Source: Carcharhinus amblyrhynchos
Taxonomy: Eukaryota
Length of the DNA stretch: 64,000 nt
Assembly (NCBI GenBank): GCA_965287045.1
Contig: OZ336882.1
Location: 6,820,001-6,884,000 of the forward strand
Reading direction: 5' to 3'
Shown here in pieces: positions 15,141 through 56,023 of this stretch. The stretch's first letter is position 1. Every line of letters starts with the position of its first letter. A program made the position numbers and the translations under genes. The notes beneath the pieces were generated by a model. That model had not been told where the DNA came from. It searched no databases and saw nothing but the letters and a program-made list of their open reading frames with translations.

Positions 15141-16176
15141 GGGCAAAGATGATATGCTGCATCTGCACATGTTCTTGGTGAGGCGAGGCATCGAGTATTG
15201 TCAACAGTTTTGATATCAGTACTTATGGGCGGATAACCTGGGCCCAGATATCTTCATACTAGGGCCCCAGTTTGGATTTGAGGTAACCGGCAAACAACTG
15301 GCAAAAGTTTCGAAGTGTGATATGACACTAAATGGTGGAGAATTTTATGCATCGGTTTGTCGAATTGCATCTTGGACTGCTGATAAAGTTTGTTGTTAAC
15401 GCATGCCAACCTTTGCTAGTTAGTCGTTTATTTCCTCTGATTTGAAATTGCCGCACTAATTTTGCTTGCACATAAGATCAGTTAAACTCTTTGCATAACT
15501 GCTGATTTTTTTTAATATCAAGAATCGGTGAGTGTTATTGCAAATTGCAGTGTTGATGTAAACCTACTTGTTACATTAATAAGTAAAATAAAAAAAAACT
15601 CATGCACCATTGAAATAATTATCACCGAGTTTTGCAAAATGACTCCAGGGTGTTGCTTTCTAAATGCGCCCTTTGCACGTAAAACATTGTTGCATCATGA
15701 TCGCTTTACAATGTTTGTAAATTTACTTCACCTAACGTCCTGATAATTAGGTTTTGTATCATGATTTGAGTTCTTTCATCATGTTCACATCAATTCACTT
15801 CACATAACAACAATGTAATCTGGGAATAGAATATGAAAACATTTGGTTATTGAATAAAAACATTTTCCTCATCGCATTCCAACTAAATACTGAATAATTA
15901 AATGGAACATCGTTGCTGAAAAGAAAATGTTTAGCTCTATGACTGGTACACTTCAGTAATAAGAATAGTAAAAATACAAAACAGCAAGCATGTAGGCAAA
16001 ACAGCAAAGGAGATTCTGTTTCGGGCATTCAAAAGATAAGGATAGAGTCATCAGTGTGGCTACCTATATCTATTAGCGTGTTTTCATATGGGACAATATT
16101 AGTTGCAATGCACAATAATTCTATGATTCACGAAAGTGATTTTTGACATAATAGCCCAGTCGAAAATTTGGATTTC

Positions 16177-18579
16177 TTATTTAGTCAAGATAGTGTTATG
16201 AACATTCAAATCATTCAATGGTAGGGTTGCTTCGCAGGATTTTAGGAACAGGAAATCACTTTTGGATGATTTTGGAGATAAACGGACAGAGTACGGGTAA
16301 GTTCCAGAAGTGGGAAGTGTCTGATGTGCTGCAGTGTAACGTAACAGATCTTTTGGGATAGTTCTCCGACTAAAGGTGTCATTCGAATTACTCCGTCTAC
16401 GGCAACAACAATATGTGGGATTGTAATGATTGATATTCCTGCCCTGTTTGCACTTTAGCACTACCAAAAATATAATGATTGCAAGAAATATAAAAGATGT
16501 TGAGCCAAAAGTGATGATTAAATAAATATTTAGTTCCGAGAAGTTCCCATGATTACTGGGTTGGCGACCTTGGTTGTCGCGCATTTCAAGAACGTTGGTC
16601 AAGACCGAAAAGCAAATGGTAGCCGTGCTGGAGAGGCGGGGTTGCCCATTGTCCTTTACCACGATGATTACTCTTTGCGTGGCAGCGTCTTCGTTTCTAA
16701 AACTTCGGACAGCCCGTATTTCTCCAGAAAATAGGCCAATGCTGAAAAGACTGGTATCAGAAGCTTCCAACATTTGGAATGTTAACCGTGTGTTCATGCC
16801 AGAATCCGCGTCTGTTGCGATTACCTTGGTGATAATGTCTCCTGGGTCTATGGACTGACGATCAATCTCCACTGGTGCTAAACTGTTGCACGGTAAGGGT
16901 GAAACAATCACCGGTGCATTGTCATTTTGATCAAGGATAATAACATTCACGATGGAAGTGCTACTCAGTGGAGGAGATCCAGCATCCTGAGCTTGAACAA
17001 TGATCTTGAAATTCTTCAGCTGTTCATAGTCAAAGGAAAGCAGTGCGTAAATGGCCCCAGTCGCCGAGTTAATTGAAATTGGAGAAGTCGACACATTTTG
17101 TTCTTGACTTTCCATAGAAGAATAGGAAACCGCTCCATTCTCAGCCAAATCTGGATCCAACGCAGTGACGGCAAACAGGAAAGAACCGGGTTGATTGTTC
17201 TCCAGCACAAGCACATCGTATGAGAGCTGCGTAAATTTCGGCGCATTATCATTAACATCAGAAATAGACACCAATATGTGTTTAGTTGTTGCGAGCGGAG
17301 GAGACCCGCCATCCCAGCATGAAATAGATATGTTGTATTGTGGGTACGTTTCACAATCCAAAATATCATTTGAAATCAACTTATAGTTGTTGCTCAGTGT
17401 CTTCTGTAGTTTGAACGGAATATTTACATCAATTTCACATTGAACCTGCCCATTCTCATCAATATCTGGATCCTTTACACTTATTGAGGCTATCAGAGTT
17501 CCAGGATGCGCATCTTCTGGAATAGTACTGGAAACTGAGGTCACCTCTACCTCCGGGGCATTGTCATTCACATCAATTAATCGCACCATTACTTTAGTGT
17601 GACCCGCCATTGCGAATACCCCTTTATCCACAGCTTCAACATGAATCTCATGAATATTACTTTCCTCAAAGTCCAGAACGCCTTCAACGCTGATCTCTCC
17701 GGTTCCTCGGTCCAGTCTAAAGAGCTCACGAGTCCGTTGCGATGTGTGACTGGTGAAAGAATATGTTAATTCAGCATTTGTGCCTTCATCTAAATCAATA
17801 GCATTGACTTTGATCACTAACGTACCTTTAGGGGCGTTTTCAAGTACATTAGTCCTATATATTTCATGATCAAATACAGGCGCATTATCATTCGCGTCCA
17901 CAACATTGATGATAATCTGAGCAGTACCAGATCTGTGCGGATTCCCTCCGTCAATGGCCGTCAACACAAAATGAAATGTTGACTGCTGCTCACGATCCAA
18001 CTGCGTTTCTAAGGATAATCCTGCCATTTTACTCCCATCGCTTTTTGTCTGCACTTTGAGGCCAAAGTGTGCATTTGGACTGATCTGGTAATTACTAATA
18101 GAATTTATACCAATATCCGGGTCGTACGCGCTCTCGAGAGGATAACGCGCCCCCGGAGCGGTAAATTCAATAATCCGGAAAGAATAAACGTCCTTCGAAA
18201 AACTGGGTGAATTGTCATTCACATCCAAGATCTCCACTTCAACGCGGTGCATTTCCAGCGGATTGTCGAGCGCAATTTGAAAAGAAAGGGAACAGGTGGA
18301 GCGTTGTCCACAAAGGTGTTCCCTGTCGATTCTTTCTTTGACAAATAAAATTCCATTTTCGAGATTTACCTCCATGTATTGGTTGCGATCATCAGAAACC
18401 AGCTGAAACTTGCGAGCCGATAACTGCAGAATGTCAAGTTTAAAATCATCTGCGATATTCCCAACAAAAGCTCCAGGTTCCAGTTCCTCTGGAATCGCGT
18501 AGCGAATTTGTCCACAGACCAAATCCGACGCGCAAAGCAGGATGAAGAAAGACGCCCAGCTCTCCGCTGTATGCGCCAT
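16177..18579 (-). CDS. pcdh: Clustered protocadherin variable exon 2 (800 aa; signal peptide, 6 EC, TM, cytoplasmic tail)
   Basis: Intact ORF with QIRYAIPEE, EC1 CGQRSTC, repeated DxNDNxP motifs, TM YLIITFGSTSFIFLAIIIFLVVL, and tail motif SVRLSPKSSKSDFLFLK. Confidence 0.97.
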   Translation of the reverse strand: MAHTAESWASFFILLCASDLVCGQIRYAIPEELEPGAFVGNIADDFKLDILQLSARKFQLVSDDRNQYMEVNLENGILFVKERIDREHLCGQRSTCSLSFQIALDNPLEMHRVEVEILDVNDNSPSFSKDVYSFRIIEFTAPGARYPLESAYDPDIGINSISNYQISPNAHFGLKVQTKSDGSKMAGLSLETQLDREQQSTFHFVLTAIDGGNPHRSGTAQIIINVVDANDNAPVFDHEIYRTNVLENAPKGTLVIKVNAIDLDEGTNAELTYSFTSHTSQRTRELFRLDRGTGEISVEGVLDFEESNIHEIHVEAVDKGVFAMAGHTKVMVRLIDVNDNAPEVEVTSVSSTIPEDAHPGTLIASISVKDPDIDENGQVQCEIDVNIPFKLQKTLSNNYKLISNDILDCETYPQYNISISCWDGGSPPLATTKHILVSISDVNDNAPKFTQLSYDVLVLENNQPGSFLFAVTALDPDLAENGAVSYSSMESQEQNVSTSPISINSATGAIYALLSFDYEQLKNFKIIVQAQDAGSPPLSSTSIVNVIILDQNDNAPVIVSPLPCNSLAPVEIDRQSIDPGDIITKVIATDADSGMNTRLTFQMLEASDTSLFSIGLFSGEIRAVRSFRNEDAATQRVIIVVKDNGQPRLSSTATICFSVLTNVLEMRDNQGRQPSNHGNFSELNIYLIITFGSTSFIFLAIIIFLVVLKCKQGRNINHYNPTYCCCRRRSNSNDTFSRRTIPKDLLRYTAAHQTLPTSGTYPYSVRLSPKSSKSDFLFLKSCEATLPLNDLNVHNTILTK

Positions 18580-18808
18580 TGTTCTGCGCTGGATTTTGCC
18601 GTAATAGTGCTAAATATCTGCCAGTCGGTAATGTTAACTGAACAAAAGAATAAGCGAATGTTGCGCTCTGCACTAATCCAGAGCTGAGAAATACTGATCT
18701 ATCAGTTACCTATTCCGAAAAAGGGTCACATAACAAACGCAGGAACAGGCTGCCCGTCTCGTTCTCTGTCCGCCTCTGTTCTGCGTTTCCCTGCTGGAGC
18801 AGGGTCCA

Positions 18809-18893
18809 GATCTCTCGCAACATCTCAGCTTCTTATTGGTAGACAGCGACACAATGTGTCCTAACCAACAACTGCAGCAACAGTTCTTAAAGC
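18809..18893 (-). promoter_or_regulatory. Protocadherin promoter module with CSE/CGCT box for gene 2
   Basis: Invariant 21-mer at 18832-18852, GATC at 18809, CTTAAAGC at 18886; 253 bp from the ATG. Confidence 0.9.
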
Positions 18894-19199
18894 AGAACTG
18901 CTTCAAAAATATTTTCACCCAGAGATCCAATATGTCCAGCAGTGCGCAAATGGTATATTGAAATGTACAGTATTATTAGTATTGTTTTTTTTAATGTGCA
19001 TGATGTATAATGTCTGAATAAAGCGAGCAGTCTTTTTAATCAAATTTCACAGCAGCACATACTTTGATAAATACTCGAACGGTGGCATTTCCGTTATCTT
19101 ACAGTTCAGACTAATTACCTTCGCCTGGTATCTCTGCTCTCCTATAATGCTGGTCACTTAAGAATCCGGATTTAGTCCCTCTGCCCTTGGCGGCCGTGA

Positions 19200-19437
19200 G
19201 ATCATGATGCTAAATTTCGGAATGCCCTCTCAAAGCCTCTCCAACTGCATGAATTTCTCTCCTGTGTGAAGACGATTCTGAGGGCCCTCGTTTTGGGACG
19301 TGAGAATTAAAGATGTTAGCCATCTCTCCAGATGTGACCCCAGTTTGAGATTTAGTTTGGTAACACTCTTGTGATTTATTCAGGATGTAGGACTACGACG
19401 AAAGGCGCTATATCAATGCAAGTAGTTGTTACTGTTG
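19200..19437 (+). mobile_element. L2-type 3' tail (L2 LINE or Deu-SINE remnant)
   Basis: Ends in AAAGGCGCTATATCAATGCAAGTAGTTGTT, the characteristic L2-family terminus. Confidence 0.55.
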
Positions 19438-21756
19438 AGGTGTGCTCACTGTGTATTTGTTTCTGAACTTGATATTTCTTGTCGTCCTCTTTTGGTGAGC
19501 AATATTTGGAGAGTACTGTTATTCCGTAGGCAGATCAATGTACTTCCAGTCAAATATTCGCACGTTACGCATCCTCAATTAACTTTGGATTCATTTACCG
19601 TCAGTGGGTAAGTTTCCATAATTTGCATTCGGTTTGTGAACTTCATAATCGTTCATTCGTAAACATTTTTTCGCAGATACGACATGAGATGTTTACCTTC
19701 AATTGCCTCTAACGTTTCCAGGACTCAAAAAGAGCGCCGCGAAATTAACATTATATAGATGGATAAAACTATATCTATATTTTAACTGCCTGACATAGAC
19801 GTACTCATCATGCCATTCTGTCTTCTTAAATCTTTGCATAAAATTCATCATAGCATCAGCATCAACACACTTAATGCAGCTGCTCAGAATAAAATCCGTC
19901 AACGCAACAAAGACAAGTCAATGAATACAGGATTCTGCAACATACTTAGATATAGAACAATGCGAAAGTTGATGTGCCTCATATTTACTGTGATCTCCTG
20001 AGCTTATCTGGTAGATTTGGAGATTTACTTTCCTCAAAAAACGAGGAATTTCTTATCTTGTTTGATGATTCTTCTCTCCCACGGTACTGCATGTCAGACG
20101 GCCTGCGGGAAGAACGGTGGGTCATTATGTATGAAGAGGTTATGACTGAACAATAGAGTTTCAAGAGGGCAGACTGTGTTTTCCTGCTCATTTTGTTAGA
20201 TGGGCCTACTTGCTACAAAGTCATATAAATAAAACTAAACTCAATGGAAAATAATTTTAAATTCCACATTTTTGAAAGGATCGTCCATGCACCAAGCTAA
20301 TAATAGATTGTTTGACAACTGCACTTGTGTTGATGAAAAAACTTTCTTCGAATGTTCTATGCCATTTTCTTTTCAAATTGCACTATAAGAAAAAGTTCAT
20401 GCTAACATATGTGCCAAGTATGTGATGCTAATCATTTAAAATTATTAATTGAAAGCATTGTAATTCTCCACAATGTTGCGCATCCTTCCATTATCGAAAC
20501 GTGCATCAATTGCTCAGTCTCCTTTGCCAAATAAGTTCTTGATGTCAAACTGTTTTAATTATGGTTGTCATTCGGACGTCCACTTTTTTATCTCACTTTA
20601 AATGTTCGATATCATACTCTCAACATCACAGATGAATATTTCTTTTCAATGTTTTCATTACCTGGTTCATATTCAAAATGCTATTACTGTCGCAAGTAAG
20701 TCAGATTTATTTGAATCAGATTTATTGGGAGTCGTGTTTATTGATGAAAGCGACACGATTCCAAAGTCCTTCAAAAACAAAACGCCAGATCCAAAGTTTG
20801 AACCTGAACTAACCAATTATTAATACCTATGATCAGAAATAGGACGACGTAACTCGTGATTTTGGAGCTCAATTGTCTGAGTTCACTGTAGACATAGATT
20901 CAGGGCTCAAGCTGCAACATATTTTAATTAATCAGACTTTTGCAATTGAAATTCTGATTAATCACGATCTCCCTTTTTTTTCTCAACATTTGAGTAGATA
21001 ACAGCGAAGCTTTGGCGAGAGAAAGTTCCACTGTTGTCAAGTTTGGATGCTGGAAATTCCCTTCCAAAGACGCGTATTTAAATGCATTTCTTCCAACATC
21101 CCTGGAAATACATTTACAGGTCCATGTTTCGAACAGATATCATATTATTTCTGATTTTAAAAATAGTTCGCTGATTTTGCAAGCTGATCTGTTCACAAAA
21201 TGTATGTTGCGCCTACGTTTAAAGCACTGACTTGACAAGACGACAAAGACGTCGTACTCGCTGTAGCAAAACAAAAAGCATGTTCCGTTTAATGAAGTTT
21301 TAGTTTCCGTTTATTACATACAAAACAATGTAAGTGATCGAGGAATAAAATGACCTTATTAAGCGACCTCTAATCGTTAATAACTGTAAACTTCTTCCCA
21401 AATTAAGATCTTGAAGTGAAAACTTTAATGGAGACTTTAAACAGAAAGGTTTCGAACAGTCATCTGCTATAATTATAGATATTGGGAAAAATGTTCATTC
21501 CAACTTTTTACATGTTTCGGCAAAGCAGAAATTACAACAAGTGTGTAGCTAGTTATTTATGTGAACATTGACACGGCAAGCTCTATTGAAGGCATTCGAG
21601 AATTAGCATAAATAATCAAATATTACTATTAATATATACACATGTCTAGGACAGTGTTCAAGCGCATAAATCAATTGTATTTGTACTGCGTAATAGGTAA
21701 ACTTACGACACGACTAAATTGCAACCAATAATCTCCAGCCCAAAGGTTAATATGTA

Positions 21757-24153
21757 TTACTTTCTTACACTACCACCACGAACATTCAAATCATTCAGCG
21801 GTAAAGTTGCTTCGCATGGTTTTATGAACAAAAAATCACTTTTGGATGACTCTGGAGATAAACAAACAGTGTACTGGTGTGTTTCAGAAATGGGAAGCGT
21901 CTGCCGTGCACCAGAATAATTTAGAAGTTCTCGGGGGACAGTTCTACGATTTATGTAGTCATTCGAGTTACTTCGCTTGCAACAACAGTAACTTGTGGAG
22001 GGATAATAATTTGTATACGTGCTCTGCTTGCACTTCAGTACCACCAGGAAAATAATTATTACAAGAAATATGAAGGATGTTGAGCCAAAGATGATGATTA
22101 AATAAGCATTCAGGTCAGAAAATTGTTCAGGACTTGTGGGTTGGTGACTTCGTTTGGAGAGATTTTCAGTAACATTGGTTAGGATTGAGAAGAAGATTGT
22201 AGCTGTGCTAGATAAGCTGGGCTGCCCATTGTCTTTCACCAAGATTATCATTTTTTGTATGGCGCAGTCTTGCTCCTTAAAATGTCGCACCGCTCTTATA
22301 TCTCCAGACAGTCGCCCCAGACTGAAGAGACTTGGATCAGTGGCCTCCAGAATTTGAAAGGAAAGCCGCATATTCTGCCCAGAATCCGCATCAGATGCGA
22401 TTACCTTGGTGATCAAATGTCCTGGATATATGGATTGGCGCAGAATCTCCACGGCCAAGGAACTATTCCAAGTTAAAGGAGAAACAATAATTGGAGCATT
22501 GTCATTCTGATCCAAGATAATAACATTCACAGTGGCAGTGCTGCTCAAGGGTGAAGATCCCGCATCCTGAGCTTGAACAATGATCTGGAAATTCTTCAGC
22601 AGTTCGTAATCAAATGAAAGCAGCGCATTTATCCTCCCACTCTTCGAGTTGATCGTAATATAAGAAGACGCAGATGTATATTGTATCTGTTTTTCATGCA
22701 TAAAGTAGGACACTTCACCATTCTGATCCGTATCTGGATCTGCAGCGCTAACACTAAATATAGAAGCACCGGGTGTATTGTTTTCCATCACAAACACGTT
22801 GTATGAGGACTGTGTAAACCTTGGAGGATTATCATTTACATCAGAAACTGATACCATTACAATTTTACTTGTAGCAAGAGGCGGAGATCCTCTGTCTCGG
22901 GCCGTAATTGATATGTTGTATTGCGGGGTAGTTTCCCGATCCAAATCACCACTTGTAACTAATTTATAATTGTTGCCGAAAGACTTCTGGAACTTAAATG
23001 GTATATCCACGTCAACATCACATTGGATTTGCCCATTTTCACGAGAGTCTGCATCCCTTACGCTGATTGTAGCTACTACCGTCCCAGACTGCGCGTCTTC
23101 TGGGACTGTACTAGATATCGACGTCACTTCAACCTCAGGCGCGTTGTCATTCACATCAATTAGTTCTACCATAACTTTGGCATGTCCTGCCATTGGATAT
23201 TCACTTTTGTCCACTGCTTCTACATCAAGTTCGTACATAGGCGATTCTTCAAAATCTAATATTCCTTCAACTTTTATTTCTCCATTTATCGGGTCCAGTG
23301 TGAACAACTCCCGAGCCTTTTCGGAAACGTGGCTAGTGAATGAATATGTTAACTCAGCGTTTTTACCTTCATCCAAATCAACAGCATTGAGTTTTATCAC
23401 TAATGCACCTTTGGGGGTGTTTTCTAAAATATTGGTACTGTATGTTTCACTGTCAAATGCAGGTGCGTTATCATTCGCATCCACAACATTAACAACAATC
23501 CGAGTAGTGCCAGATCTATGGGGGATACCACCGTCAGCAGCTGTCAGTACAAGATGGAAGGTTGACTGTTCTTCACGGTCCAAGGTTTTCTGTAACAGCA
23601 GCTCGGCACTTTTAGTTCCATCATTTCTTGCCTGCACTCTGAGGTCGAAGTATTCATTTGGGCTAATCTGGTAACTGCTGATTGCATTTGTGCCGACGTC
23701 GGGGTCGTGCGCGCTCTCGAGAGGCAAACGCTTCCCTGGCATTATTAACTCATTGATCCGCAAAGCATATTCGTCCTTTAAAAAACTAGGTGAATTATCA
23801 TTTATATCTAGTATTTCCACTGCAACGCGATGCATTTCCGAAGGATGTTCAAGCAGTACTTGGAATGAAAGGGAACACACAGGGCTTTGCCGACAGAGCT
23901 GTTCTCTGTCGATTCTTTCATTAATAAATACATTTCCATTTTCCAGATTTACCTCCATGTATTGTTTCCTGCTGTCGGAGACAAGTCGAAAATTGCGGAC
24001 CACTATTTCCCGAGCGTTTAGGCTTAAATCATCAGCGATATTCCCAACAAAGGCCCCATACTCCAGCTCCTCGGGAATCGAGTAGCGAATTTGTCCTGAA
24101 ACCAGGACCGATATACACAGCAGAAAAATGAAAGAAGCCAGTATATTCGTCAT
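21757..24153 (-). CDS. pcdh: Clustered protocadherin variable exon 3 (798 aa)
   Basis: Intact ORF with QIRYSIPEE, CRQSPVC, six cadherin repeats, TM, and tail YTVCLSPESSKSDFLFIKP. Confidence 0.97.
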   Translation of the reverse strand: MTNILASFIFLLCISVLVSGQIRYSIPEELEYGAFVGNIADDLSLNAREIVVRNFRLVSDSRKQYMEVNLENGNVFINERIDREQLCRQSPVCSLSFQVLLEHPSEMHRVAVEILDINDNSPSFLKDEYALRINELIMPGKRLPLESAHDPDVGTNAISSYQISPNEYFDLRVQARNDGTKSAELLLQKTLDREEQSTFHLVLTAADGGIPHRSGTTRIVVNVVDANDNAPAFDSETYSTNILENTPKGALVIKLNAVDLDEGKNAELTYSFTSHVSEKARELFTLDPINGEIKVEGILDFEESPMYELDVEAVDKSEYPMAGHAKVMVELIDVNDNAPEVEVTSISSTVPEDAQSGTVVATISVRDADSRENGQIQCDVDVDIPFKFQKSFGNNYKLVTSGDLDRETTPQYNISITARDRGSPPLATSKIVMVSVSDVNDNPPRFTQSSYNVFVMENNTPGASIFSVSAADPDTDQNGEVSYFMHEKQIQYTSASSYITINSKSGRINALLSFDYELLKNFQIIVQAQDAGSSPLSSTATVNVIILDQNDNAPIIVSPLTWNSSLAVEILRQSIYPGHLITKVIASDADSGQNMRLSFQILEATDPSLFSLGRLSGDIRAVRHFKEQDCAIQKMIILVKDNGQPSLSSTATIFFSILTNVTENLSKRSHQPTSPEQFSDLNAYLIIIFGSTSFIFLVIIIFLVVLKCKQSTYTNYYPSTSYCCCKRSNSNDYINRRTVPRELLNYSGARQTLPISETHQYTVCLSPESSKSDFLFIKPCEATLPLNDLNVRGGSVRK

Positions 24154-24347
24154 TGCTCTTGCTAGAATCCCTAATAATAAACAGTCATCAAAAAGGAAAA
24201 GTCGACCTTACTTCTGATTGCTAACACTCAAACAAGAGAGACAAATTCCTTCTGCGTCTTCTGAACATGTCTGCTCAGCATGAAAGCAGGAACAGTCTGC
24301 CTCTCACCCTTCCAAGCTGCTCAACATTGCTGTAAGAGGCGGGGGTA

Positions 24348-24432
24348 GATCTCGACCAGCGTTTCAGCTCCTTATTGGTAGACAGCGACACAGAGTGTCC
24401 CAACCAATAACTGCAACAACTGCCCTTAAAGC
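24348..24432 (-). promoter_or_regulatory. Protocadherin promoter module with CSE/CGCT box for gene 3
   Basis: Invariant 21-mer at 24371-24391, GATC at 24348, CTTAAAGC at 24425; 218 bp from the ATG. Confidence 0.9.
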
Positions 24433-25999
24433 TACACTGCTTCAATGTATTTGGATTTAGAAGTGTGCAATTAAAATACTTAGGTCATTTAAAATTGTAT
24501 TTTTTAAAGCCGACTGGTGACGTGTAAGTGAAACCCGGTGGTTCCTTCGATAAATCTGTGATGTCAGCCATCGGCAATGATTCATTCCCAAACTTCGCGT
24601 GAGCTGCACTCTTGCTGTTACGCTGACCTGTGTAAGACATGAATAAATTGGACTGTGTTTAAAATCAATAATTTGCATTGCGAAATGGTGATGTTAAAGG
24701 ATATTTTTTGTTTACCCTGTATTCTCATGCAGTTTTTAGAATAGACATGTTATGCATGATACTCTTTTTTCTACATTTTTTTAATCGCACGAAAATACTT
24801 CTTTGCACAGCCGTTTGTATTTTACATTCTGGGTAGGCTTTGTAAACGTGCAACATGTTCATTGTACTTTCAAGTCATTCATAAAATGGTAAAATTATTC
24901 AAAAACAAGCATCATGTGAGAACCTTTGCCACTTTGCAGAATATTGTACCTTGAGAGAGACAATCGCGTGTTTGCTTGCTGAAGTAACTTTCCACATTGC
25001 TTACCTTTAGCGAGTCCGTTTGGATAGCTGGTACTCTTTATAAACGTCCGTTCTAGTTGGAACCAAATACGTGTCGACTTGTATTTACTTTAAATCCACA
25101 AGGATGAAAAAAGACCTAATAAACTATCCACCGAAGTGATGCGTTCCGTACATTTTTCAATTACTTTTCAACTCATGACGCTCTGTTAACAATTAAAATA
25201 TAAGCCTTTTTTTCCAATGAAATGTCGCCGGCATGAAATTTCCCTGCTGTTCTACCTCCACAGATGCTGAACATTTTCACCATCCTGTGTTTGTCGTTGA
25301 ATGTCCTTCATAACCTACCGCATCTGTATAAATAAAAGTGGTTCACAATCCTTTTGAATGGAAATTTGAAATTGAATATCTTGGATTCAATAACAACACG
25401 TATAAGTGTAAGATCTTACAATTCTAACATAATATGTTGAAAAACAGTGGGTTATTCAACCTAGCCAGTTTCACGATCCTCCAAATTCAAATGAAACATG
25501 GTTTTACCGCTGCAACCATCAAACTTATGTTAGAATAACGAGCAGTTCCATGTTGCCCTTCATCGTATTTGGGCTGATATTTTGCTCGGTAAGACAGAAT
25601 TTCCCATAATAAAAAAGGTGGCATTTGACTATGCTTACTAACATATTAATCAGGTTAATAAAACTACATTCAGAAGTAAGTTTCTTATAATCACATCAAC
25701 AATCCAGCTTTTGTCATGGCAAAGAACACTATTTTATTAATATTATGCCTCCATGGGGTACGGGTTATACTGACAAAGACAGTATTTATTGTACATCACT
25801 CCTTCTCACTTGAATAGTATGGGATGATTAATAAATTCCAGCCAGCCTGTTAAAAACAAATCTTGTTTGACGAATTGCATTGAACACTTTGTTGAAATAA
25901 TTATGAAAATTGCTAAGCTATTGTAACTAACATGGTTGACGCAAGCGTTCAAGCGCATTTGGTAAAATAGAATGCAATAGATACCTATTTAAAAAAAAA

Positions 26000-37522: not shown

Positions 37523-38286
37523 GCAAATTGTCCTCTAAGGTTTGCAGGGGCGTAATGATGAGTCAATTTCGAACATACTATGCATGGAACAAATGTGTCT
37601 CCCTCCTTCATGATGTGTTAATGCGCGCCCAAGTCAAAGTAGCCACGCAATGCATCTATGGGTCTGCACACAGTAAACTGAAGCCAAACGAAAAATTGTA
37701 CGAGAATGCTGCAAAACCAGCGACAGTTAAAACTTAAATGCATAGCAATTCAGAATTAATATTTAGTTTTGTGTATCAACATTGTTTGATAGGAGACTCT
37801 CAGGGCCTGACCTCAGGCCTTCAATCCAATTGTAACAACTTAACTGATTAATCTGAAATTTCACTTTGTTTTGAAGCACAACTGTATGCCGCTCAAAATA
37901 ACTGAGCCGAGACTATTAAAATATTGGAGAGTGAGATTTAAGAAGGCTCTATTCAGTTTCCTTTCAAAAACATTTTTCAGTATGTAGTTAGTTAGACATT
38001 AGTAAAAACAGAAATCATAAGCAGTTGAAAGACAAGTTTCTACAAACGTGCAAGTAATTAGTATACTAATCAAGACTGTAAAATGGGGTTTATAGACAAG
38101 AATAGCTATGACTGAACGCAAGGAAAATGGAAAGAAGAGTGGGCAGTTCTGGCGCATTAGATTTGCCGTTTTCAAAATGGAAATCTAGAATCTTGCATGA
38201 GATACAACCTCCAATTCAGGACATAATAAATATTTCTTTACCAAAACGCATTACCTGTCAGTGGGAGAATGAAACTGCTGCCTTAG

Positions 38287-40680
38287 TTAATTTCTTCCGT
38301 TGATGTCATGAACACTCACATCATTGAAAGGCAACGTAGGATGACAGGGTTTTAAAAAGAGAAAATCACTCTTCGATGATTCAGGTGATAAACACACAGT
38401 GTAACGATAACCTTCAGTCTGAACTGACCCGCTGTAATTTAAAGGTTCACTTGTGGCTTGCCTCCGATTAAAACCATCATTGGAATTCCTCCGACTATAA
38501 CAACGACCTGTAGAGGTATAGTCTTCAGCAATATTTCTGTCTTGTCTATACTTCAGGATGACCAATCCAATAATCGTTACCAGGAACAAAAAGGAAGTGG
38601 ATCCTAAAATGATGATCAGATAACTATTTAGATCTGAAAAATATTCCAAGCGTCTGGGTTCATCCATTCGTTCAAAAGAGTTCTCAGTCACATTGGACAT
38701 TATTGTAAAGGAGATTGTGGCCGTACTGGAGAGGCTTGGTTGTCCATTGTCCTTCACACAGAGGATCACATTTTTTGTAATGATTTCTTGGTCTCTAATA
38801 CTTCGTGTTGCTCTGATTTCCCCAGAGAGAATACCAATTGTGAACAGATTAGGATCAATGGCCTCCAATAATTGGAAGGAAAGCCTCGCATTCTGACCAG
38901 AATCCTCATCTGTCGCAATCACCTTGGTGATTAAGTAACCTGGATAAGTTGACTGGGGCATTATCTCCACGAATGCTGAGCTGTTCCACGTCAGAGGTGA
39001 AAGGATAACCGGCGCATTGTCATTTTGGTCTAGGATAATAACATTGACAATAGCAGTACCACTTAATGGAGGAAATCCAGCATCATGAGCTTCAACGCTG
39101 AATTGAAAATGTTTCAGTTGCTCATAATCAAAGGACTGCAGTGCGTAAATGTTCCCATTCTTGGAGTTAATCGTGACGTAAGCAGAGGAAGACATATCTT
39201 GCTTTGCATTGTCGAGAATAGAATAGGAAATTTCTCCATTTTGATTCAAATCAGCATCATATGCATTAACAACAAATATAGAAGCACCAGGTGTATTATT
39301 CTCCATCAGGTATACATTATATGAGGATTGTGTAAATTTTGGAGCGTTGTCGTTGATATCAGTTATGGAAACCAAGATGAGTTTACTTGTTGAAAGAGGT
39401 GGCGAGCCTCCGTCCCAGGCAGAAATGGAGATGTTGTACAATGGGATCAGTTCATGGTCCAGAATACCGTTGGTAACCAACTTGTAGTTATTCCGTAAAG
39501 GGTTTTCAATGTTGAACGGAATACTCCCTGGAATCTGACAGTGAACTTCTCCAAATTCATCAGAATCAGCATCAGTTACACTGAACAAAGCTATCGTCGT
39601 TCCTGCTGGAGCATCCTCCCGCACAGCACTGGCAACTACAGTTACGTGCAACTCAGGAAAATTATCGTTCGTGTCAATGACATCGACCACAACATTTGCA
39701 TGGGCTGCCAATCCTGGTGGAACATGTTCCACTGCTTGTACGTCAAGTTCATAAACATTCGCTTCTTCAAAATCCACGACTCCTTGAACTCTGATCTCCC
39801 CAGTAGCAGGGTCCAATTGGAACAAATCACGGATATTTTGGGAAACGTGATTGGTGAAGGAATATGTTACTTCAGCATTTGTACCTTCATCCATATCCGC
39901 AGCATTAATTTTTATCACTAAGGTACCATTGGCGACGTTTTCCACGACAGTCGCCCTGTAGGTTTCCTGATCGAAAATAGGGGCGTTATCATTTCCGTCC
40001 ATTACATTAATGATAAGCTGAGCTGTGCCAGACCTGTGAGGAATCCCACCGTCTATGGCCGTCAGTTGAAGAGTAAACATTGATTGTTTCTCGCGGTCTA
40101 AAGGCTTTTTCAGTAAAAGCTCAGCATTTTTACTTCCATCCCGTCTTGTCTGCACTTTGATAGCGAAGTTCTCGTTTGGACTGATCTTGTAAGTGTTGAT
40201 TGCGTTTGTACCTACATCCGGATCCTGCGCGCTCTCGAGAGGGAAGCGCGCCCCTGGCGCAATTAATTCATTGATCTGCAAGTGGAATTCCCTCTTCGGA
40301 AAGATGGGCGAATTATCATTTACATCTTGTATCTCCACTGAAACGGGATACATTTCCAAAGGGTTGACGAGCGCGATTTGAACAGAAAGTGAACAGGGAG
40401 AGCTTTTTTTGCAAATCTGTTCTCTGTCGATTCTTTCATTAACAAATAAAAAACCATTTTCCGGATTTACCTCCATGTATTGTTTCGGGTCATCTGAAAT
40501 CAGCCGAAATTTGCGAGACGGTAATTCCCAAACATTAAGTCGTATATTTTCAGCGATATTCCCAATAAAGGCCCCACGTTCCAGTTCCTCAGGAATCGAG
40601 TAGCGAAGCTGCTCCGAAACCAAGTCGGACACACACAGCACGAAAATGAAGACCGTCCGACTCATCAGTAAGTTCGCCAT
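38287..40680 (-). CDS. pcdh: Clustered protocadherin variable exon 4
   Basis: Intact ORF. The first ATG in paralog-like context (GCG ATG GCG) is at 40680, giving MANLLMSRT...QLRYSIPEE. Six ECs, TM, and tail YTVCLSPESSKSDFLFLKP. The ORF-track start at 40722 is non-ATG. Confidence 0.96.
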   Translation of the reverse strand: MANLLMSRTVFIFVLCVSDLVSEQLRYSIPEELERGAFIGNIAENIRLNVWELPSRKFRLISDDPKQYMEVNPENGFLFVNERIDREQICKKSSPCSLSVQIALVNPLEMYPVSVEIQDVNDNSPIFPKREFHLQINELIAPGARFPLESAQDPDVGTNAINTYKISPNENFAIKVQTRRDGSKNAELLLKKPLDREKQSMFTLQLTAIDGGIPHRSGTAQLIINVMDGNDNAPIFDQETYRATVVENVANGTLVIKINAADMDEGTNAEVTYSFTNHVSQNIRDLFQLDPATGEIRVQGVVDFEEANVYELDVQAVEHVPPGLAAHANVVVDVIDTNDNFPELHVTVVASAVREDAPAGTTIALFSVTDADSDEFGEVHCQIPGSIPFNIENPLRNNYKLVTNGILDHELIPLYNISISAWDGGSPPLSTSKLILVSITDINDNAPKFTQSSYNVYLMENNTPGASIFVVNAYDADLNQNGEISYSILDNAKQDMSSSAYVTINSKNGNIYALQSFDYEQLKHFQFSVEAHDAGFPPLSGTAIVNVIILDQNDNAPVILSPLTWNSSAFVEIMPQSTYPGYLITKVIATDEDSGQNARLSFQLLEAIDPNLFTIGILSGEIRATRSIRDQEIITKNVILCVKDNGQPSLSSTATISFTIMSNVTENSFERMDEPRRLEYFSDLNSYLIIILGSTSFLFLVTIIGLVILKYRQDRNIAEDYTSTGRCYSRRNSNDGFNRRQATSEPLNYSGSVQTEGYRYTVCLSPESSKSDFLFLKPCHPTLPFNDVSVHDINGRN

Positions 40681-40909: not shown

Positions 40910-40994
40910 GATCGCTCGCAGAGTCTCGGCTTCTTATTGGTAGACAGCGACACGAAGAGTCCCAACCAATAACTGCAACAAATTTTCTTAAAGC
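40910..40994 (-). promoter_or_regulatory. Protocadherin promoter module with CSE/CGCT box for gene 4
   Basis: Invariant 21-mer at 40933-40953, GATC at 40910, CTTAAAGC at 40987; 253 bp from the ATG. Confidence 0.9.
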
Positions 40995-42136: not shown

Positions 42137-42151
42137 ATTTCGTTCACGTTT

Positions 42152-44349: not shown

Positions 44350-45443
44350 CAAATATGGATGGTGAGTGTCGAAAGGAGGGTGTTGACATTCTGAGGACGC
44401 GTTGAGACAAAAAGGAAGGTGTTATTGGAGGTTTTGAAAAAGATTAAGTTGGACAAGTCCCAAGGGTCTACCCCAGAATACTGAGTGAGACGAGGGAAGA
44501 AAATGCTGAGGCCTTGGCCAGTATCGTTGTATCCTCTTTAGCCATGGGCGAGGTAACAGAGGATTGGAGAGTAGCTAACATTGTTCTTCTTTTTAAGAAA
44601 GGCAGAAAACACAATCTGTGAAATTACAGGCCTGCGAGCCTTACATCAGTGGTGGGGAAGTTATTGGAGAATATTCTTAGTGACAGGGCGTAGTCTCGTC
44701 TGGAAGATAGGCAGTATGGTTTGTGAAGGGGGTGGGGTCGAGTCTCACCAACTTGGTTGAGTTCTTTGAGGAAGTAACAAGAAAAATTCACCAGGGCAGG
44801 CAGCAGATGTATGCATGGATTTTAGTAAAGCCTTCGGTAAGGTTTGCAGGCTGATAAGGGACGCCAAGTCAAATGGGTTCCGAGGTGAGCTGGTGAGACG
44901 GATACAAAACTGGCTTGGTTATAGAAAGCAGACAGTAACAGTGGAAGGGTACATTTTCTAACTGGAGATCTGTGACAAACCGTGTTCCACAAGGAGCAGT
45001 GATGGGGCCTCTGTTGATTATAATATATGTAAATCATTTGGAGGAAAACGTGGGTGGTCTGTTTAGTAAATATGCCGATGATACAAAAATTGGGGGAGCA
45101 GCTGATAGTGAAGAGGATTGTCAGATGGTACAGCAGGATATTAATTAGCTGGAGACCTGGGCTGAAAAATTGCAGATGGAATTTAACACGGACAAATGTG
45201 AGGTGATGCGATTTGGTAGGTCTACTGCAGAAGGAAAGTACACAGTAAATGGTAGAAGCCTTAGAAATATGAGCACACAAAGGGATCTTAAGCATGCAGA
45301 TCCAGAGTTTCCAAAAGATGACAACTCAGTTGGACAAGGTTAAAGAAGGAGTATGGCATGCTGGCCTTCATCAATCCGGGTATTGAAAATAGGAATTGGA
45401 AATTCATGTTTCAGTTGATTTTGGTTAAGACTTTGGTTAGGCT

Positions 45444-45476
<33 letters not shown>

Positions 45477-45973: not shown

Positions 45974-45974
45974 A

Positions 45975-47869: not shown

Positions 47870-50800
47870 ATAGGAGCTACAGGCACTTAGAAAGGCAAAA
47901 ACTGATTAGGGACATTCAACGTGGTTTCTGAGTGGAAAATCATATCTCACCAATTTGATTGAGTTTTCTGAAAGTTTAACGGAGAAGGTAGACGAGGGCA
48001 GTGCAGCCGACTTTGACAAGGTACCACATGGTAGGTTGTTGCATGAGTTTAAACTTCGCAGGATCCAGGGTGAAGTAGCTAATTGGATACCAAAGATAAA
48101 AATAGAGGCTGGTTGCAAAGGGTTATTTTTCAAACTGGAGGCCAGTGACCAGCGGTGTGCCTCAGGGATCAATGTTGGGCCCATTGTTATTTGTCATTTA
48201 TATTAATGATTTAGATGAGAATTTAGGAAACATGGTTAGTAAGTTTACAGATAACATCAAGATTGGTGGCATAGTGAGCAGTGAAAAACGTTATCTAGGA
48301 TTGCAAAGGGATATTGATGAATTGGACCAGTAGACTAATGAATGACAGATGAATTTTAATGTCGATTAATATGAGGTAATGCATTTTGGCAGATCAAACC
48401 ATGGCAGGACTTACTCTCAGTTAATGGTAGGGCACTGGGGAGAGTTATAGGACAAAAAGATCTCGGGGTACAAGTTCACAGCATCTTGAAAGTGGAATCA
48501 TAGGTGGACAGGGTGGTGAAGAAAGCAATTCGGCATCCTTGCTTTAATTGGTCAGAGCATTGAATGCAGGAGCCGGGACACCTTGCCGATGCTGTACAAG
48601 ATGTAGGTAACTTCGCACTTAGAATACTGTGTACAGTTCTGGTCACCCTATTATAGAATAGATACTACTTAACTAGAAAGAGTGCCGAAAAGGTTTACTG
48701 GGATGCTACCAGAACTTGATGGTTTGAGTTATAAGGACAGGCTGGATAGACATGAACTTTTTCCCTGGAGTATAAGAAGTGTTGCGGTGATCTTATATAA
48801 GAACATAAGAACATAAGAAATAGGAGCAGGAGTAGGCCATCTAGCCCTTCGAGCCTGCCCCGCCATTCAATAAGATCATGGCTGATCTGTCGTGGCTCAG
48901 TTCCACATTCCCGCCCTCTCCCCATAACCCTTAATCCCCTCTCTTATCAAAAACTCATCAGCCCGCGTCTTAAAAATATTTAGCGAGGTAGCCTCCACCA
49001 CTACAACGGGCAGAGAATTCCAGAGATTCACCACCCTTTGAGTGAAGACGTTCCTCCTCAACTCCGTTCTAAACCGCACCCCCCCCCCCCCCCCACCCTT
49101 TATCTTGAGGCTGTGCCCCCTAGTCCTATTATCCTTTCTGAGCGGGAAGAGTCTCTCCACGTCTATCCTATCCATCCCATTCATCATCTTATACGTCTCA
49201 ATGAGATCTCCCCTCATTCTTCTAAACTCTAACGAGTACGAGCCTAGTTTATTCAGCCTCTCCTCATAGCTCAACCCCCTCAACTCCGGCATCAGCCTAG
49301 TAAACCTCCTCTGCACTCCCTCCAAGGCCAAAATATCCTTGCGTAAGTACGGCGCCCAAAACTGCACACAGTACTCCAGCTGCGGCCTCACCAATGCTCT
49401 ATACAGCCGCAGCAAGACCGCCCTACTTTTATATTCAATCCCCCTCGCTATGAAGGCCAGCATTCCATTCGCCTTCCTGATCACCTGCTGCACCTGCAGG
49501 CTGGGTTTTTGCGACTCATGCACAAGGGCCCCAAGGTCCCTCTGCACCGTCGCCTGCTGCAGTTTTTTGCCATGTAAGTGATAATCCTTCCTACCATTAT
49601 TCCTACCAAAGTGGACCACCTCGCACTTGCCAACATTAAATTCCATTTGCCATTTCCTGGCCCATTCGCCCAGCTTATCTAGATCCTTCTGTCGACTCTC
49701 CACACCCTCCGCACAATTTGCCTTTCCTCCAATTTTGGTGTCATCAGCAAATTTCGACACCCTACACTCGGTTCCCTCCGCCAGGTCATCTATATAAATG
49801 GTAAATAGCTGAGGCCCCAGCACTGACCCCTGAGGCACTCCACTAGTCACCATCCGCCAATCCGAATAGCACCCATTGACTCCCACTCTCTGCCTCCTAT
49901 TTGACAACCAATCCTCTATCCACGCTAACACCCTACCCCCAACTCCCTGTCCCCTGACCTTCTGCAATAACCTCCTGTGAGGTACCTTGTCAAACGCCTT
50001 CTGAAAATCCAGAAAGACCACATCCACCGGCTCTCCTCTATCCACCGCCCTAGACACATCCTCATAGAACTCCAGTAAATTTGTCAGACACGACTTCCCT
50101 TTAACGAAACCGTGCTGCGTCTGCTCTATCAAGCAATTCCACTCAAGATGCCTCGTTATTTCCTCCTTGATGACGGATTCTAACATTTTACCTACAACAG
50201 ACGTTAAACTAACCGGCCTATAATTCCCTGCCTTTTGCCTGGCACCCTTCTTAAACAACGGCGTAACATTAGCCGCTTTCCAATCTTCCGGCACTTCCCC
50301 GGAATCCAGCGACGTCTGGAAAATAACCATCAAGGCATCCACTATCACCTCCGCCATTTCTTTCAGAACCCTCGGATGCATTCCATCCGGTCCTGGCGAC
50401 TTGTCCACAATCAGTCCCTCCAGTCTGTCGAGCACCTCCTCTCTAGTAACAGTAATGTCATTAAGACCCTCCAGTCCTACCACCTTTCCATCTCTAACAC
50501 CCGGCAAATTATTCACGTCCTCCTCCGTGAAGACAGAAACAAAAAAGTTATTCAGGACCTCAGCCATATCCCCATCCCCTACCACTAAGTCCCTCTCCTC
50601 ATCCTCTAAGGGGTCTATTAAATAATGATGGGTATAGATAAGGTAGATAGTCAACATTTTTCCCGTAGGTTTGGGAGTCTAAAACTAGAAGGTATAGTTA
50701 TAAGGTGGGGGGGGGGGAATACAAAATGGCCCAGAGGGACATTTAGTTCACACTGAGGGTGGTGAGTGTCTGAACTAAGCTGCCAGATGTAGTAGAAGGT

Positions 50801-53010: not shown

Positions 53011-53629
53011 ATATAAGGTGAGTAACTAAGCTAATGTGAGACAACAAGATTACTGATACAAGAAGCCATTGTTTTCATGTAAAATCTGGAAGAAAACTGA
53101 GAAAGTATTTACCGTTGACATACTCGTGCTGCATAATTTTCCAGGGACAAACAAGTAACATATCATGAAAGCAGCGAATATGCCGACTCCACGCAATGAT
53201 AACACCGGAGAATTTATTTCAGGGGCACGTATTTAGTTTTACGATTCATTACTGTTCAATGTAACCAAACGTCCAAAAAATATTCTTGTCGCATTGACCA
53301 CCTCAAGATACGCGATGTAACATTAGCAGAGCAAGGGGTTGCACTTTTATAATTTACACAATCAAACAATTATGTCAGGCTTCAATATGATATTAATTAA
53401 GCATGCACTGCTCAGGATTGTGAGGATATGGGCAGATATGTGTAGCATCAGTGAAAGGCAAAAATATAACAGCAACAGTAAGCAATTTGACTAATGTAGT
53501 CTTAAACTACCAAAATTCGAGGACCTAGTGGTATAGGAAAGAATGGCTTACCCAATATTTCTAAGTATAACACACAGATCTACCAAGTGTGAATTATTTA
53601 CCACTCCCTGCATCGAAACTGCTTCCAAG

Positions 53630-56023
53630 CTATATTTTTGTGTTGGCATCCCGGACACCCAAGTCATTGAAAGGCAAGGTAGGATTACAGGGCTTTAAAA
53701 ACAGAAAATCACTTTTCGCTGACTCTGGCGATAAACACACGGTATAGTGATAACCTTCAGTCTGAGCAGACTCGGCATAGTTAAATGGTTCGTTTGGTGC
53801 AGACCTCCGGTTAAAGGCATCGTTCAAATTCCGTCTTCTGTAACAACAAACCGCAGAGTTGTGATCTTCAGCGATATTTCTGCCTTGATTAAACTTCAGC
53901 ATGACAAGGGAAATGATGGTTACAAGAAATAAAACCGATGTTGATCCCAATATAACGATTAAATAACCATTAAGATGCGAAAAATACTTCGATGCACCAG
54001 GTTCATCAATTTGTTCAGAAGAATTTTTTGTTACATTGGACAAGACGGTAAATGAGATCGTAACCGTGGTGGAAAGGCTTGGCTGTCCATTATCGTTCAC
54101 AATGACGACCAATCTTGCTGTGCTGGTACTTTGCTCCCTTAAACGTTGTCTTGCTCTGATTTCCCCAGAGAGAAGGCCCACAGTGAACAGATTGGAACCA
54201 TTGGTCTCCATCGATTGATAGGAAAGCCGGGAATTCTGACCGGAATCCGCATCAGTCGCGATTATCTTGGTCACCAAATATCCTGGATGCAATACTGACT
54301 GCTGCCCAATCTCCACTGATGCCGAACTGTTCCAGGTTAAAGGTGAGACAATAACCGGTGCGTTGTCATTTTGATCCAAGATTATAACATTGACAATGGC
54401 AGTACTGCTCAGCGGGGAAGATCCCATATCCTGGGCTTGAACTTTGATCTGGAAGTGCTTCAACTGTTCATAGTTAAAGGAACGCAGGGCGTAAATGTCC
54501 CCATGTTTGGAATTGATGGAGACGTAAGGAGTCCCGCCTCTTCCTTCATTCTGAGCCTCCAGAATTGAATAGTGAATCTCACCGTTCCGGCCTAAATCTG
54601 AATCCAATGCTGTGACAGCAAATATAGAAGCACCTGGAGTGTTGTTCTCCATCTGATATATGTTATATAAGGATTGTGTGAAATTTGGCACATTGTCATT
54701 TATATCTGAAACGGAAACTAAAAGAGTTGTATTTGTTGAAAGAGGGGGAAATCCCCCGTCCCAGGCTGAAATACAGATGTTGTATGTCGGGGATGCTTCA
54801 CGATCCAAAATACCATTGGTAACCAACTTGTAGCTGTTCTTCAACGTTTTTTGAAGTTTGAATGGAAGTTGCCTTGGAATGTGACACCGTACGTGCCCAT
54901 ATTCGCCAGAATCTGGATCCATAACACTGACCAAAGCGATCACAGTCCCCGGAGGAGCATCTTCCTGCACTGAGCTGGACACCAAAGTCACGTCTATCTC
55001 GGGGATGTTATCATTCGTGTCTATCAGTCCAACCATCACTTTTGCCCGTCCAGCCACACCAGGCGGAGCGTTATCCATGGCCTCTACATCAAGTTCGTAA
55101 ACACTTGCTTCTTCAAAATCCAGTACACCTTGGACTGTTATTTCTCCAGTTTTGGGGTCTAAATTGAACAATTCGCGAATACCCTGGGGAACATGGCTGG
55201 TGAAAGAATAGGTCAGTTCAGCATTGGTACCTTCATCTGTATCAGCAGCGTGGACTGTTGCCACCAACGTCCCTTTGCGGGAATTTTCTGCGACGCTGGA
55301 TTTGTATATTTCGTGATCAAATATAGGTGCGTTATCATTCGCGTCCAGGATAGTGATTGAAATCCGGCTTGTGCCAGATCTCGGGGGTTCACCGCCATCA
55401 ACAGCCGTCAGCACAAGGTTGAAGGTTGACTGCTGTTCACGGTCCAAGGCTTTCTCTAACAGCAGCTCAGCACTTTTGCTTCCATCATTTCGTGTCTGAA
55501 CTCTGATGCCAAAATGTTCATTTGGACTGATCTGGTAAGTACTGATTGCATTTGTGCCGATGTCCGGGTCGTGCGCGCTCTCGACAGGGAAGCGCGCACC
55601 TGCCGAAATTGACTCACTGATCTGCAAGAAGAATTCGCTATTCGGAAATTTGGGTGAATTATCATTTACATCTAATATTTCCACTTCAACAGGATGTATT
55701 TCCAAAGGTTTATCGAGGACGACTTGCAACGAAAAGGAACAGGCAGGGCTTTGTCGACAAAGCTGTTCTCTGTCGATCCGTTCATTAACAAATAAAACCC
55801 CATTTTCCAGATTTACCTCAATGTATTGCTTCCTTTCTTCGGAGGCCAGGCGAAATTTACGAGCCGATAATTCCCAAATATGTAATCTCAAATTCTCAGC
55901 GATGTTCCCAACAAAGGCCCCGTGCTCCTGCTCCTCGGGAATCGAGTAGCGAATTTGTCCTGAAACCAGGTCCGACAGACAGAACAGAAAAATGAACGTT
56001 ACACCGCAACTCATTGAGGCCAT
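53630..56023 (-). CDS. pcdh: Clustered protocadherin variable exon 5
   Basis: Intact ORF. ATG at 56023 (ACA ATG GCC) gives MASMSCGVT...QIRYSIPEE, with CRQSPAC, six ECs, TM, and tail YTVCLSPESAKSDFLFLKP. The ORF-track start at 56053 is a TTG. Confidence 0.96.
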   Translation of the reverse strand: MASMSCGVTFIFLFCLSDLVSGQIRYSIPEEQEHGAFVGNIAENLRLHIWELSARKFRLASEERKQYIEVNLENGVLFVNERIDREQLCRQSPACSFSLQVVLDKPLEIHPVEVEILDVNDNSPKFPNSEFFLQISESISAGARFPVESAHDPDIGTNAISTYQISPNEHFGIRVQTRNDGSKSAELLLEKALDREQQSTFNLVLTAVDGGEPPRSGTSRISITILDANDNAPIFDHEIYKSSVAENSRKGTLVATVHAADTDEGTNAELTYSFTSHVPQGIRELFNLDPKTGEITVQGVLDFEEASVYELDVEAMDNAPPGVAGRAKVMVGLIDTNDNIPEIDVTLVSSSVQEDAPPGTVIALVSVMDPDSGEYGHVRCHIPRQLPFKLQKTLKNSYKLVTNGILDREASPTYNICISAWDGGFPPLSTNTTLLVSVSDINDNVPNFTQSLYNIYQMENNTPGASIFAVTALDSDLGRNGEIHYSILEAQNEGRGGTPYVSINSKHGDIYALRSFNYEQLKHFQIKVQAQDMGSSPLSSTAIVNVIILDQNDNAPVIVSPLTWNSSASVEIGQQSVLHPGYLVTKIIATDADSGQNSRLSYQSMETNGSNLFTVGLLSGEIRARQRLREQSTSTARLVVIVNDNGQPSLSTTVTISFTVLSNVTKNSSEQIDEPGASKYFSHLNGYLIVILGSTSVLFLVTIISLVMLKFNQGRNIAEDHNSAVCCYRRRNLNDAFNRRSAPNEPFNYAESAQTEGYHYTVCLSPESAKSDFLFLKPCNPTLPFNDLGVRDANTKI

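Follow-up and report, generated by a model that had tools for sequence, protein, structure and literature searches.

Pcdh-epsilon genes of Carcharhinus amblyrhynchos with candidate splice donors behind their stop codons are probably single-exon genes

Five Pcdh-epsilon genes and their promoters

The window, i.e., the whole stretch of 64,000 nucleotides of Carcharhinus amblyrhynchos DNA that was analysed, contains five clustered protocadherin genes, all on the minus strand (Table 1), with no additional protocadherin piece found within it by tblastn and with 0 Rfam matches. A Mustelus asterias protein shares 93% identity with the partial gene 1. In gene 3, Pfam recognises Cadherin_2 (EC1), five Cadherin stretches and Cadherin_C_2, and no Cadherin_tail; six cadherin repeats, a transmembrane segment and a short tail lie within a single open frame, as is expected of a Pcdh-epsilon gene. 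Upstream of all five genes, 217-259 nt from the ATG, an identical 21-mer containing CGCT is present, which occurs in 0 of 100 shuffles, and each gene has in this way its own promoter with the CGCT element, again as in Pcdh-epsilon. The name CSE for this element is taken from the literature, where the CGCT element is mentioned for the elephant shark in a passage of PMC2926608. When the constant regions of 13 spliced relatives were compared with the window, the best match had an E value of 0.5, with nothing better.

Table 1. Genes, promoter elements, candidate sites and putative 3' UTRs in the window (a slash marks the candidate exon end; + values are distances in nt behind the stop)
Feature	Position	Strand	Remark
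Gene 1, Pcdh-epsilon type, partial	1..1833	-	truncated by window edge; 3' end beyond window
Gene 2 coding exon, 800 aa, TAA stop	16177..18579	-	open frame and tree
Gene 3 coding exon, 798 aa, TAA stop	21757..24153	-	open frame and Pfam
Gene 4 coding exon, 797 aa, TAA stop	38287..40680	-	open frame and tree
Gene 5 coding exon, 797 aa, TAG stop	53630..56023	-	open frame and tree
21-nt CGCT-containing promoter element, gene 1	2068..2088	-	identical copy
21-nt CGCT-containing promoter element, gene 2	18832..18852	-	identical copy
21-nt CGCT-containing promoter element, gene 3	24371..24391	-	identical copy
21-nt CGCT-containing promoter element, gene 4	40933..40953	-	identical copy
21-nt CGCT-containing promoter element, gene 5	56280..56300	-	identical copy
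Gene 2 GT at +45, TTC/GTGAAT	16130..16131	-	first-pass pick = shared position; weak
Gene 3 GTs at +45 (21711, GTC/GTGTCG) and +50 (21706, GTC/GTAAGT)	21705..21711	-	+45 shared position; +50 first-pass pick
Gene 4 GTs at +32 (38254, CAG/GTAATG) and +45 (38241, TTG/GTAAAG)	38240..38254	-	candidate sites; +32 best of the four picks
Gene 5 GTs at +28 (53601, GTG/GTAAAT) and +46 (53583, TTG/GTAGAT)	53582..53601	-	candidate sites
Likely unspliced 3' UTR, gene 2	15011..16176	-	contig ends 15011 (X11), 15049 (X1); ATTAAA at 15045
Likely unspliced 3' UTR, gene 3	21306..21756	-	matches end 21306 (X1), 21307 (X11); AATAAA at 21315

The assignment of the genes is based on their tails and on a tree. A search with the tail of gene 3 gave 156 matches, the best 120 of which are all from sharks, rays, chimaera or unnamed sources. 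In all of these best 120 of 156, the distance between the start of the SDFLF-like motif and the protein end is 14-40 residues, the distribution peaking at 18 residues (39 proteins) and 27 residues (40 proteins), and none of them carries a constant domain, so that no C-terminal domain is shared among them. In the window genes, 27 residues separate the motif start from the stop, and the protein ends there without a constant domain, as in the epsilon type, the named members of which differ among themselves in their C-termini. The Callorhinchus proteins among the 120 listed matches are epsilon8, 9 and 17, to which cluster look-ups and a second search add epsilon2, 3, 6, 7, 10-14 and 18.

The tree was calculated with FastTree from 62 hand-picked rows (5 window genes, 13 named epsilon proteins, 27 other elasmobranch or unnamed proteins, 1 electric eel protein and 16 outgroups), with the outgroups cut to 830 residues, with unnamed spliced shark proteins standing in for mu, nu and delta, and with no clean Pcdh-beta row in the set. 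In this tree genes 1-5 lie inside a 45-row clade of support 100, together with 13/13 named Callorhinchus epsilon rows, and this clade is separate from the 16 outgroup rows and from the electric eel row. As judged from tree and tails, the window genes are members of Pcdh-epsilon, a known gene type. The first-pass annotation, which was made from the sequence alone, had suggested self-terminating, beta-like proteins, and since the genes fall in the epsilon clade and their tails lack a constant domain, this part is borne out and corresponds to the known epsilon type. New shark members are added here to a known subcluster, and they most likely behave like Pcdh-beta.

GT sites behind the stop codons

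For each of the four complete genes the first-pass annotation had picked a GT hexamer shortly behind the stop codon, at 16131, 21706, 38254 and 53601, as a candidate 5' splice donor. All four GTs are present, at distances of 45, 50, 32 and 28 nt from the stop, and so is AGCAGTTTC, which is common to the short UTRs of genes 4 and 5; the quality of the sites is weak, however, and as donors they are not confirmed. The stops are indeed homologous, lying in the same column in 4/4 genes, with the spacing being exactly 20 residues after SDFLFxK rather than the 18-20 residues given before. When the post-stop stretch is aligned across the paralogs, the four picked sites do not line up.

With an approximate donor matrix, not MaxEntScan, the picks of genes 2, 3, 4 and 5 score -4.2, 0.9, 4.0 and 1.9 bits, respectively, and an equal or better site is present in 67%, 16%, 2.9% and 11% of 935 non-coding 56-nt background windows of the minus strand, the gene 4 site CAG/GTAATG, which outscores 97% of them, being the only one in the top 3%. 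For the summed score the joint P is 0.035 on the minus strand, 0.08 on the plus strand and 0.02 in 104 local windows, and the test on the weakest of the four gives P of 0.18-0.30. The four picks are weak, and their excess over chance is marginal. Moreover, since GTRA is present in 299 of the 935 windows, its presence in 4/4 genes has P of about 0.01, for a motif that was picked after the fact. In gene 5 a stronger site lies at +78 (TGG/GTAAGC, 53551), beyond the 50-55 nt zone. A metagenome scan for related loci gave 594 pattern matches, with 0 confirmed.

Absent from the first-pass annotation is a GT that is common to all four genes, at +45, +45, +45 and +46. Of the 16 dinucleotides, GT (+45) and TT (+11/12) are the only ones that all four genes have in common over the first 66 nt, with a tolerance of one base. 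The shared GT lies at codon 43 from the motif, with phase 0 in three genes, and in the spliced relatives the shared C-terminal region begins 36, 36, 37, 42 (six proteins), 43 (two proteins) and 44 residues from the motif, as measured in 12 of 15 relatives with anchors set by hand, 3 being dropped as unmeasurable and several being orthologs. In the cartilaginous-fish spliced relatives the junction is at 42-44 in 8/8 measured. An independence model gives P of 0.007 if the shared GT may lie anywhere and of 0.0009 if it must lie inside +42 to +48, and with simulated relatedness these values become 0.14-0.52 and 0.016-0.08, respectively. It is noted, as a counterpoint to the reading preferred below, that the match of codon 43 to the 8/8 junctions stands beside a simulated probability of only 0.04-0.21 for the neutral survival of an ancestral GT in all four genes.

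Because the +45/+46 pattern was seen before the codon test was designed, it is suggestive only that the shared GT may mark the position of an ancestral donor. The triplet preceding the shared GT is TTC, GTC or TTG, whereas Glu is the last residue of the exon in 8/8 spliced relatives from sharks. At +45, genes 2 and 3 have only poor donors, and in 4/4 genes the frame stops at codon 28, none of the frames staying open to a phase-0 donor at 36-44 codons.

Contigs of putative transcripts and isoform records

Four of 17 runs (X1, X11, X2 and X3, with 43-107 million letters) were aligned to positions 12700-26700, a region that covers two of the four post-stop sites, those of genes 2 and 3. Three of the four runs are guessed to be RNA and X11 is of unknown kind, no RNA record existing for any of the 17; the runs are from related organisms about 1% divergent from the window and from unspecified tissues, and contigs drop rare forms. 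It is noted as a further counterpoint that genes 4 and 5, which have the best sites, lie outside the region covered by the contigs.

The gene 3 site is spanned unbroken in three of the four runs, by X1 record 8, X11 record 15 and X3 record 28 (positions 21306-24630, 21307-23514 and 21444-21844), with 138-2924 nt on the exon side and 263-401 nt beyond the site, and the gene 2 site is spanned in two of the four, by X11 record 12 and X1 record 3 (15919-16706 and 15824-16322), with 191-575 nt on the exon side and 213-308 nt beyond. Altogether, three runs, guessed to be RNA or of unknown kind, contribute five contigs that span the two sites, with flanks of 138 nt or more on either side. In X2 no piece is present at either site among the pieces listed, with 105 pieces lying beyond the listing. 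No junction at a post-stop GT was found among the 5 joints or among the 24 loose ends listed (the best 24 of 74). The read-through that the first-pass annotation had named as evidence against splicing is thus seen at genes 2 and 3, with its force reduced because the RNA status is guessed, the tissue is unspecified and rare forms are dropped by the contigs. For genes 2 and 3, the contig ends beside polyA hexamers (Table 1) hint weakly at local polyadenylation. At 21306 the X1 contig has 159 further letters without match in the window, and its other end lies 477 nt ahead of the ATG of gene 3, as would equally be the case with DNA.

Some features of the alignments were considered as junctions and rejected. 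Four joints with sides of 21-36 letters, in or between the coding regions, and one joint that goes back are away from the post-stop sites and were read as matches between paralogs. A loose end at 16044 (X11, X3) is followed by no GT in the window. The end of X11 record 14 at 20661, with 30 unplaced letters, lies beside a CAG/GTAATG, and since the bin depths imply that about 26 of the 30 letters map just beyond 20661, the reading as a splice was rejected. Cover in any of the four runs is absent from 10 of 30 bins (13167-14567, 18771-20171 and 24842-26700), and neither this nor the depth differences between contigs were counted as evidence.

Based on these data, we can weigh the proposal that in the normal mRNA of each gene a post-stop donor joins one non-coding constant exon common to the genes, at a distance from the stop that is limited by nonsense-mediated decay (NMD). 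It is established that a stop close to the last exon junction escapes NMD, and all four picks do lie at most 55 nt from the stop, with the joint P of 0.02-0.08. For the spacing argument to be valid, the donor has to join the last exon; if a set of several constant exons were joined, there would still be, by the same rule, a large distance between the stop and the last junction. Moreover, the picks are unaligned, and with the five unbroken contigs over the sites the proposal is unsupported at genes 2 and 3. The protein records point in the same direction. Under the RefSeq practice, exons that are shared between genes usually merge the genes into one locus, and in the same five species an isoform label is carried by 1/32 epsilon-type proteins versus 10/10 spliced-type ones (up to X34), the single labelled epsilon-type protein having a sibling isoform that is truncated before the membrane segment. 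Since shared exons usually merge loci and 31/32 epsilon-type proteins are unlabelled, it is unlikely that a common exon is used at a visible level, where an isoform label is taken, from that practice, to indicate a merged locus. In addition, the constant-exon tree of a lizard paper contains alpha, gamma, delta, mu and nu and no epsilon (PMC2764143, as regards that tree). It is noted that a protein tree of constant exons could not reveal a non-coding exon. In favor of the proposal are the shared GT at +45/+46, the better sites of genes 4 and 5, which lie outside the aligned region, and a lamniform paralog, described next, which indicates that a near non-coding second exon is possible for an epsilon gene. 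On balance a shared non-coding constant exon in the normal mRNA is very unlikely; it is unsupported and would be at most a minor form. If it is real, it would represent a third architecture for clustered protocadherins.

The lamniform paralog groups with epsilon17/18, and its isoforms in Cetorhinus and Carcharodon differ in the last residue only: Cetorhinus XP_078407352 and XP_078407351 and Carcharodon XP_041048857 end in T-stop, P-stop and A-stop, respectively. As read from the proteins only, these ends fit phase-1 donors at +16 and +28 nt, behind the homologous stop, and at -26 nt, before its end, all joined to one C-N-stop exon. In addition, one Carcharodon protein, the stop of which falls on the codon where the window genes end, has three accessions. 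The isoforms would fit post-stop splicing in one epsilon paralog of two shark species. For gene 3 itself, the catshark ortholog has two accessions and one protein. These isoforms and the two catshark accessions are again a counterpoint to the preferred reading.

Such isoforms, together with the gene 4 site that exceeds 97% of the background and with the shared GT at the ancestral donor codon (with the P values given above), are what can be said for a donor zone that is maintained at +28 to +50 and that some epsilon genes (4 and 5 being the most plausible) would use, leaving the protein unchanged, either by a regulated gene-specific splicing of the 3' UTR or by leak splicing to downstream exons. 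By contrast, the lamniform paralog is a distant branch in the tree and no ortholog of genes 2-5, the +45 sites in genes 2 and 3 are poor and are spanned by contigs, and the +45 pattern was noticed ahead of the codon test. The maintained zone is considered rather unlikely. A further reading, in which the ancestral donor behind a newer stop would be used in brain to join a shared non-coding last exon, we regard as quite unlikely; if it is true, a subcluster without a constant protein domain would share a constant 3' UTR that sets the mRNA location or stability.

The in-frame sites AGT/GTAAGA (21768, gene 3) and GAT/GTGAGT (38319, gene 4) exist, as the first-pass annotation had stated, at positions that are not homologous. 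If they joined coding constant exons, the genes would be variable exons of the ordinary kind and the stop would belong to a read-through form. The latter site scores 3.4, close to the post-stop site of gene 4, and the Carcharodon paralog isoform fits a donor inside the coding tail; however, no comparable in-frame donor is present in genes 2 and 5, the site at 21768 is spanned by the same three contigs as the gene 3 post-stop site, and a constant domain is found in 0/120 listed tail matches (the best 120 of 156). Such a use of the in-frame sites is highly improbable.

Comparison with known protocadherins and the preferred reading

The elephant shark Pcdh-epsilon subcluster has reportedly been described by Yu et al. 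(2008), where the exon structure may already be settled. Judging from the protein records, Pcdh-epsilon would have a single-exon transcript without constant exons. Like the elephant shark proteins (ABV59320-ABV59336), the window genes belong to the same clade, with 55-61% identity, about 800 aa, the CGCT promoter element and their own C-terminus, which in the elephant shark lies 27-40 residues from the motif start. Unlike them, genes 2-5 represent an elasmobranch expansion without a one-to-one Callorhinchus ortholog in the tree, and whereas the tails of the 13 named Callorhinchus proteins vary, these four genes all stop at residue 27. With the spliced variable exons (alpha, gamma and the shark mu/nu type, where the shark rows compared carry no mu/nu names) the window genes share the exon anatomy and the promoter, and the phase-0 junction that lies 42-44 codons from the motif in 9/12 proteins compares with the GT at codon 43; in contrast to the spliced exons, the window frames stop at codon 28, and no constant domain is present in the listed relatives.

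The subclusters delta, epsilon, mu and nu are named for the elephant shark in passages of PMC2764143 and PMC4978886, and the part of PMC2764143 on epsilon reports it without ortholog in bony vertebrates, so that its likeness to the mammalian single-exon Pcdh-beta, which also has a short tail of its own and, as is probable here, no constant exons, is one of parallel design. According to the passage of PMC3431597 on mouse transcripts, the beta mRNAs are polyadenylated (locally), with no product spliced to constant exons, and PMC3601302, in the part concerned, describes for Pcdh-beta a residual 5' splice site near the end of the single exon and rare intercluster splicing. The beta sites are called consensus, in contrast to the weak shark sites, which are found 28-50 nt past the stop. 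A loss of splicing is one of two routes for the origin of beta that are discussed in a section of PMC7811963. In the literature searched, outside which Yu et al. 2008 lies, no report of post-stop splicing of shark epsilon genes was found.

We propose that these are single-exon epsilon genes, the main mRNA of which likely runs unspliced through the post-stop GTs to a local polyA signal, a reading to which we give a probability of roughly three in four. What is observed is the one promoter element of five genes, the four full frames ending at the homologous codon, the epsilon grouping and the contigs of genes 2 and 3. In this single-exon reading, each gene would be switched on from its own promoter, and one large exon, ending its frame with a stop of its own, would give the entire protein. 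The product would be an adhesion receptor with a short tail, similar to that of the mammalian Pcdh-beta genes. The mRNA would then be left unspliced and be polyadenylated locally, as the contigs of guessed RNA suggest for the read-through at genes 2 and 3 and as would be expected for the rest. The genes probably derive from a spliced variable exon in which a stop arose 15 codons ahead of the phase-0 donor. What is left of this ancestral donor, in worn form, may be the GT at +45/+46, and the other picks (+28, +32 and +50) probably represent cryptic sites or chance. If a donor is used at all, this would presumably be rare leak splicing, as reported for Pcdh-beta. Finally, we note that epsilon, like beta, may have turned single-exon, with the stop being gained before the donor and the donor then decaying.

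A GT shared by the four genes behind the stop codon

The first-pass annotation placed the candidate donors of genes 2, 3, 4 and 5, the complete protocadherin-epsilon-type genes, at 45, 50, 32 and 28 nt behind the stop codon, respectively. A GT at +45/+46 behind the stop is present in all four genes (window 16131, 21711, 38241 and 53583), falling on the same codon as the donor of the spliced shark subclusters, and in three of the four genes the site chosen earlier differs from it. Note also that the 9-mer of the gene 4 site, CAG|GTAATG, recurs identically at window 20661, roughly 1.1 kb past the stop codon of gene 3; an X11 contig of low depth apparently continues across this copy.

Contig ends around genes 2 and 3

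Contigs from X1, X3 and X11, sequencing runs from related organisms (X1 and X3 presumably RNA), were compared with window 12700-26700. The 159 letters of an X1 contig past window 21306 match nowhere on that stretch and an X11 contig ends at the adjoining 21307; the window sequence following the break at 21306 has no GT, and an 8-nt direct repeat (21312-21305 and about 21290-21283) lies at the break. At window 16044, where the window sequence likewise has no GT, X11 and X3 carry the same long loose end following a short match. Upstream of gene 3, an X1 contig reaches 477 nt beyond the ATG (24153-24630), past the promoter element, which could represent upstream transcription, antisense transcription or DNA.

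The gene 2 3' UTR also holds a short high-copy piece resembling the tail end (3') of SINE/LINE elements in sharks, and the reverse transcriptase frame listed below is one that we take to be a LINE of CR1 type.

Repeat-related features in the window
Feature	Coordinates	Strand	Evidence
Open frame, 586 aa, reverse transcriptase domain	48897-50678	minus	Pfam RVT_1, E 3e-34
Related fragments	near 34856-36056, 44984-45220, 62690-63571
Short high-copy piece, gene 2 3' UTR	15544-15592		matches many unrelated contigs

Protein features and isoforms in other sharks

Gene 2 has LDCE, and gene 4 has LDHE, where the fourth cadherin repeat normally carries the calcium-binding motif LDRE. Among the best 120 of 156 matches to the gene 3 tail, most of the epsilon-type tails belong to one of two length groups, ending either 18 or 27 residues from the SDFLF-like motif, with the 18-residue rows forming a separate clade in a FastTree tree of 62 hand-picked rows.

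The Scyliorhinus canicula ortholog of gene 3 (P0002) may have two transcripts differing in a UTR, because two accessions encode the one protein. An epsilon17/18-like paralog of Cetorhinus and Carcharodon (proteins P0167 and P0181-P0184) has several RefSeq isoforms and, in Cetorhinus, Glu in place of the usual stop; judged by their protein sequences, these isoforms fit splicing to an exon with a stop after one codon.
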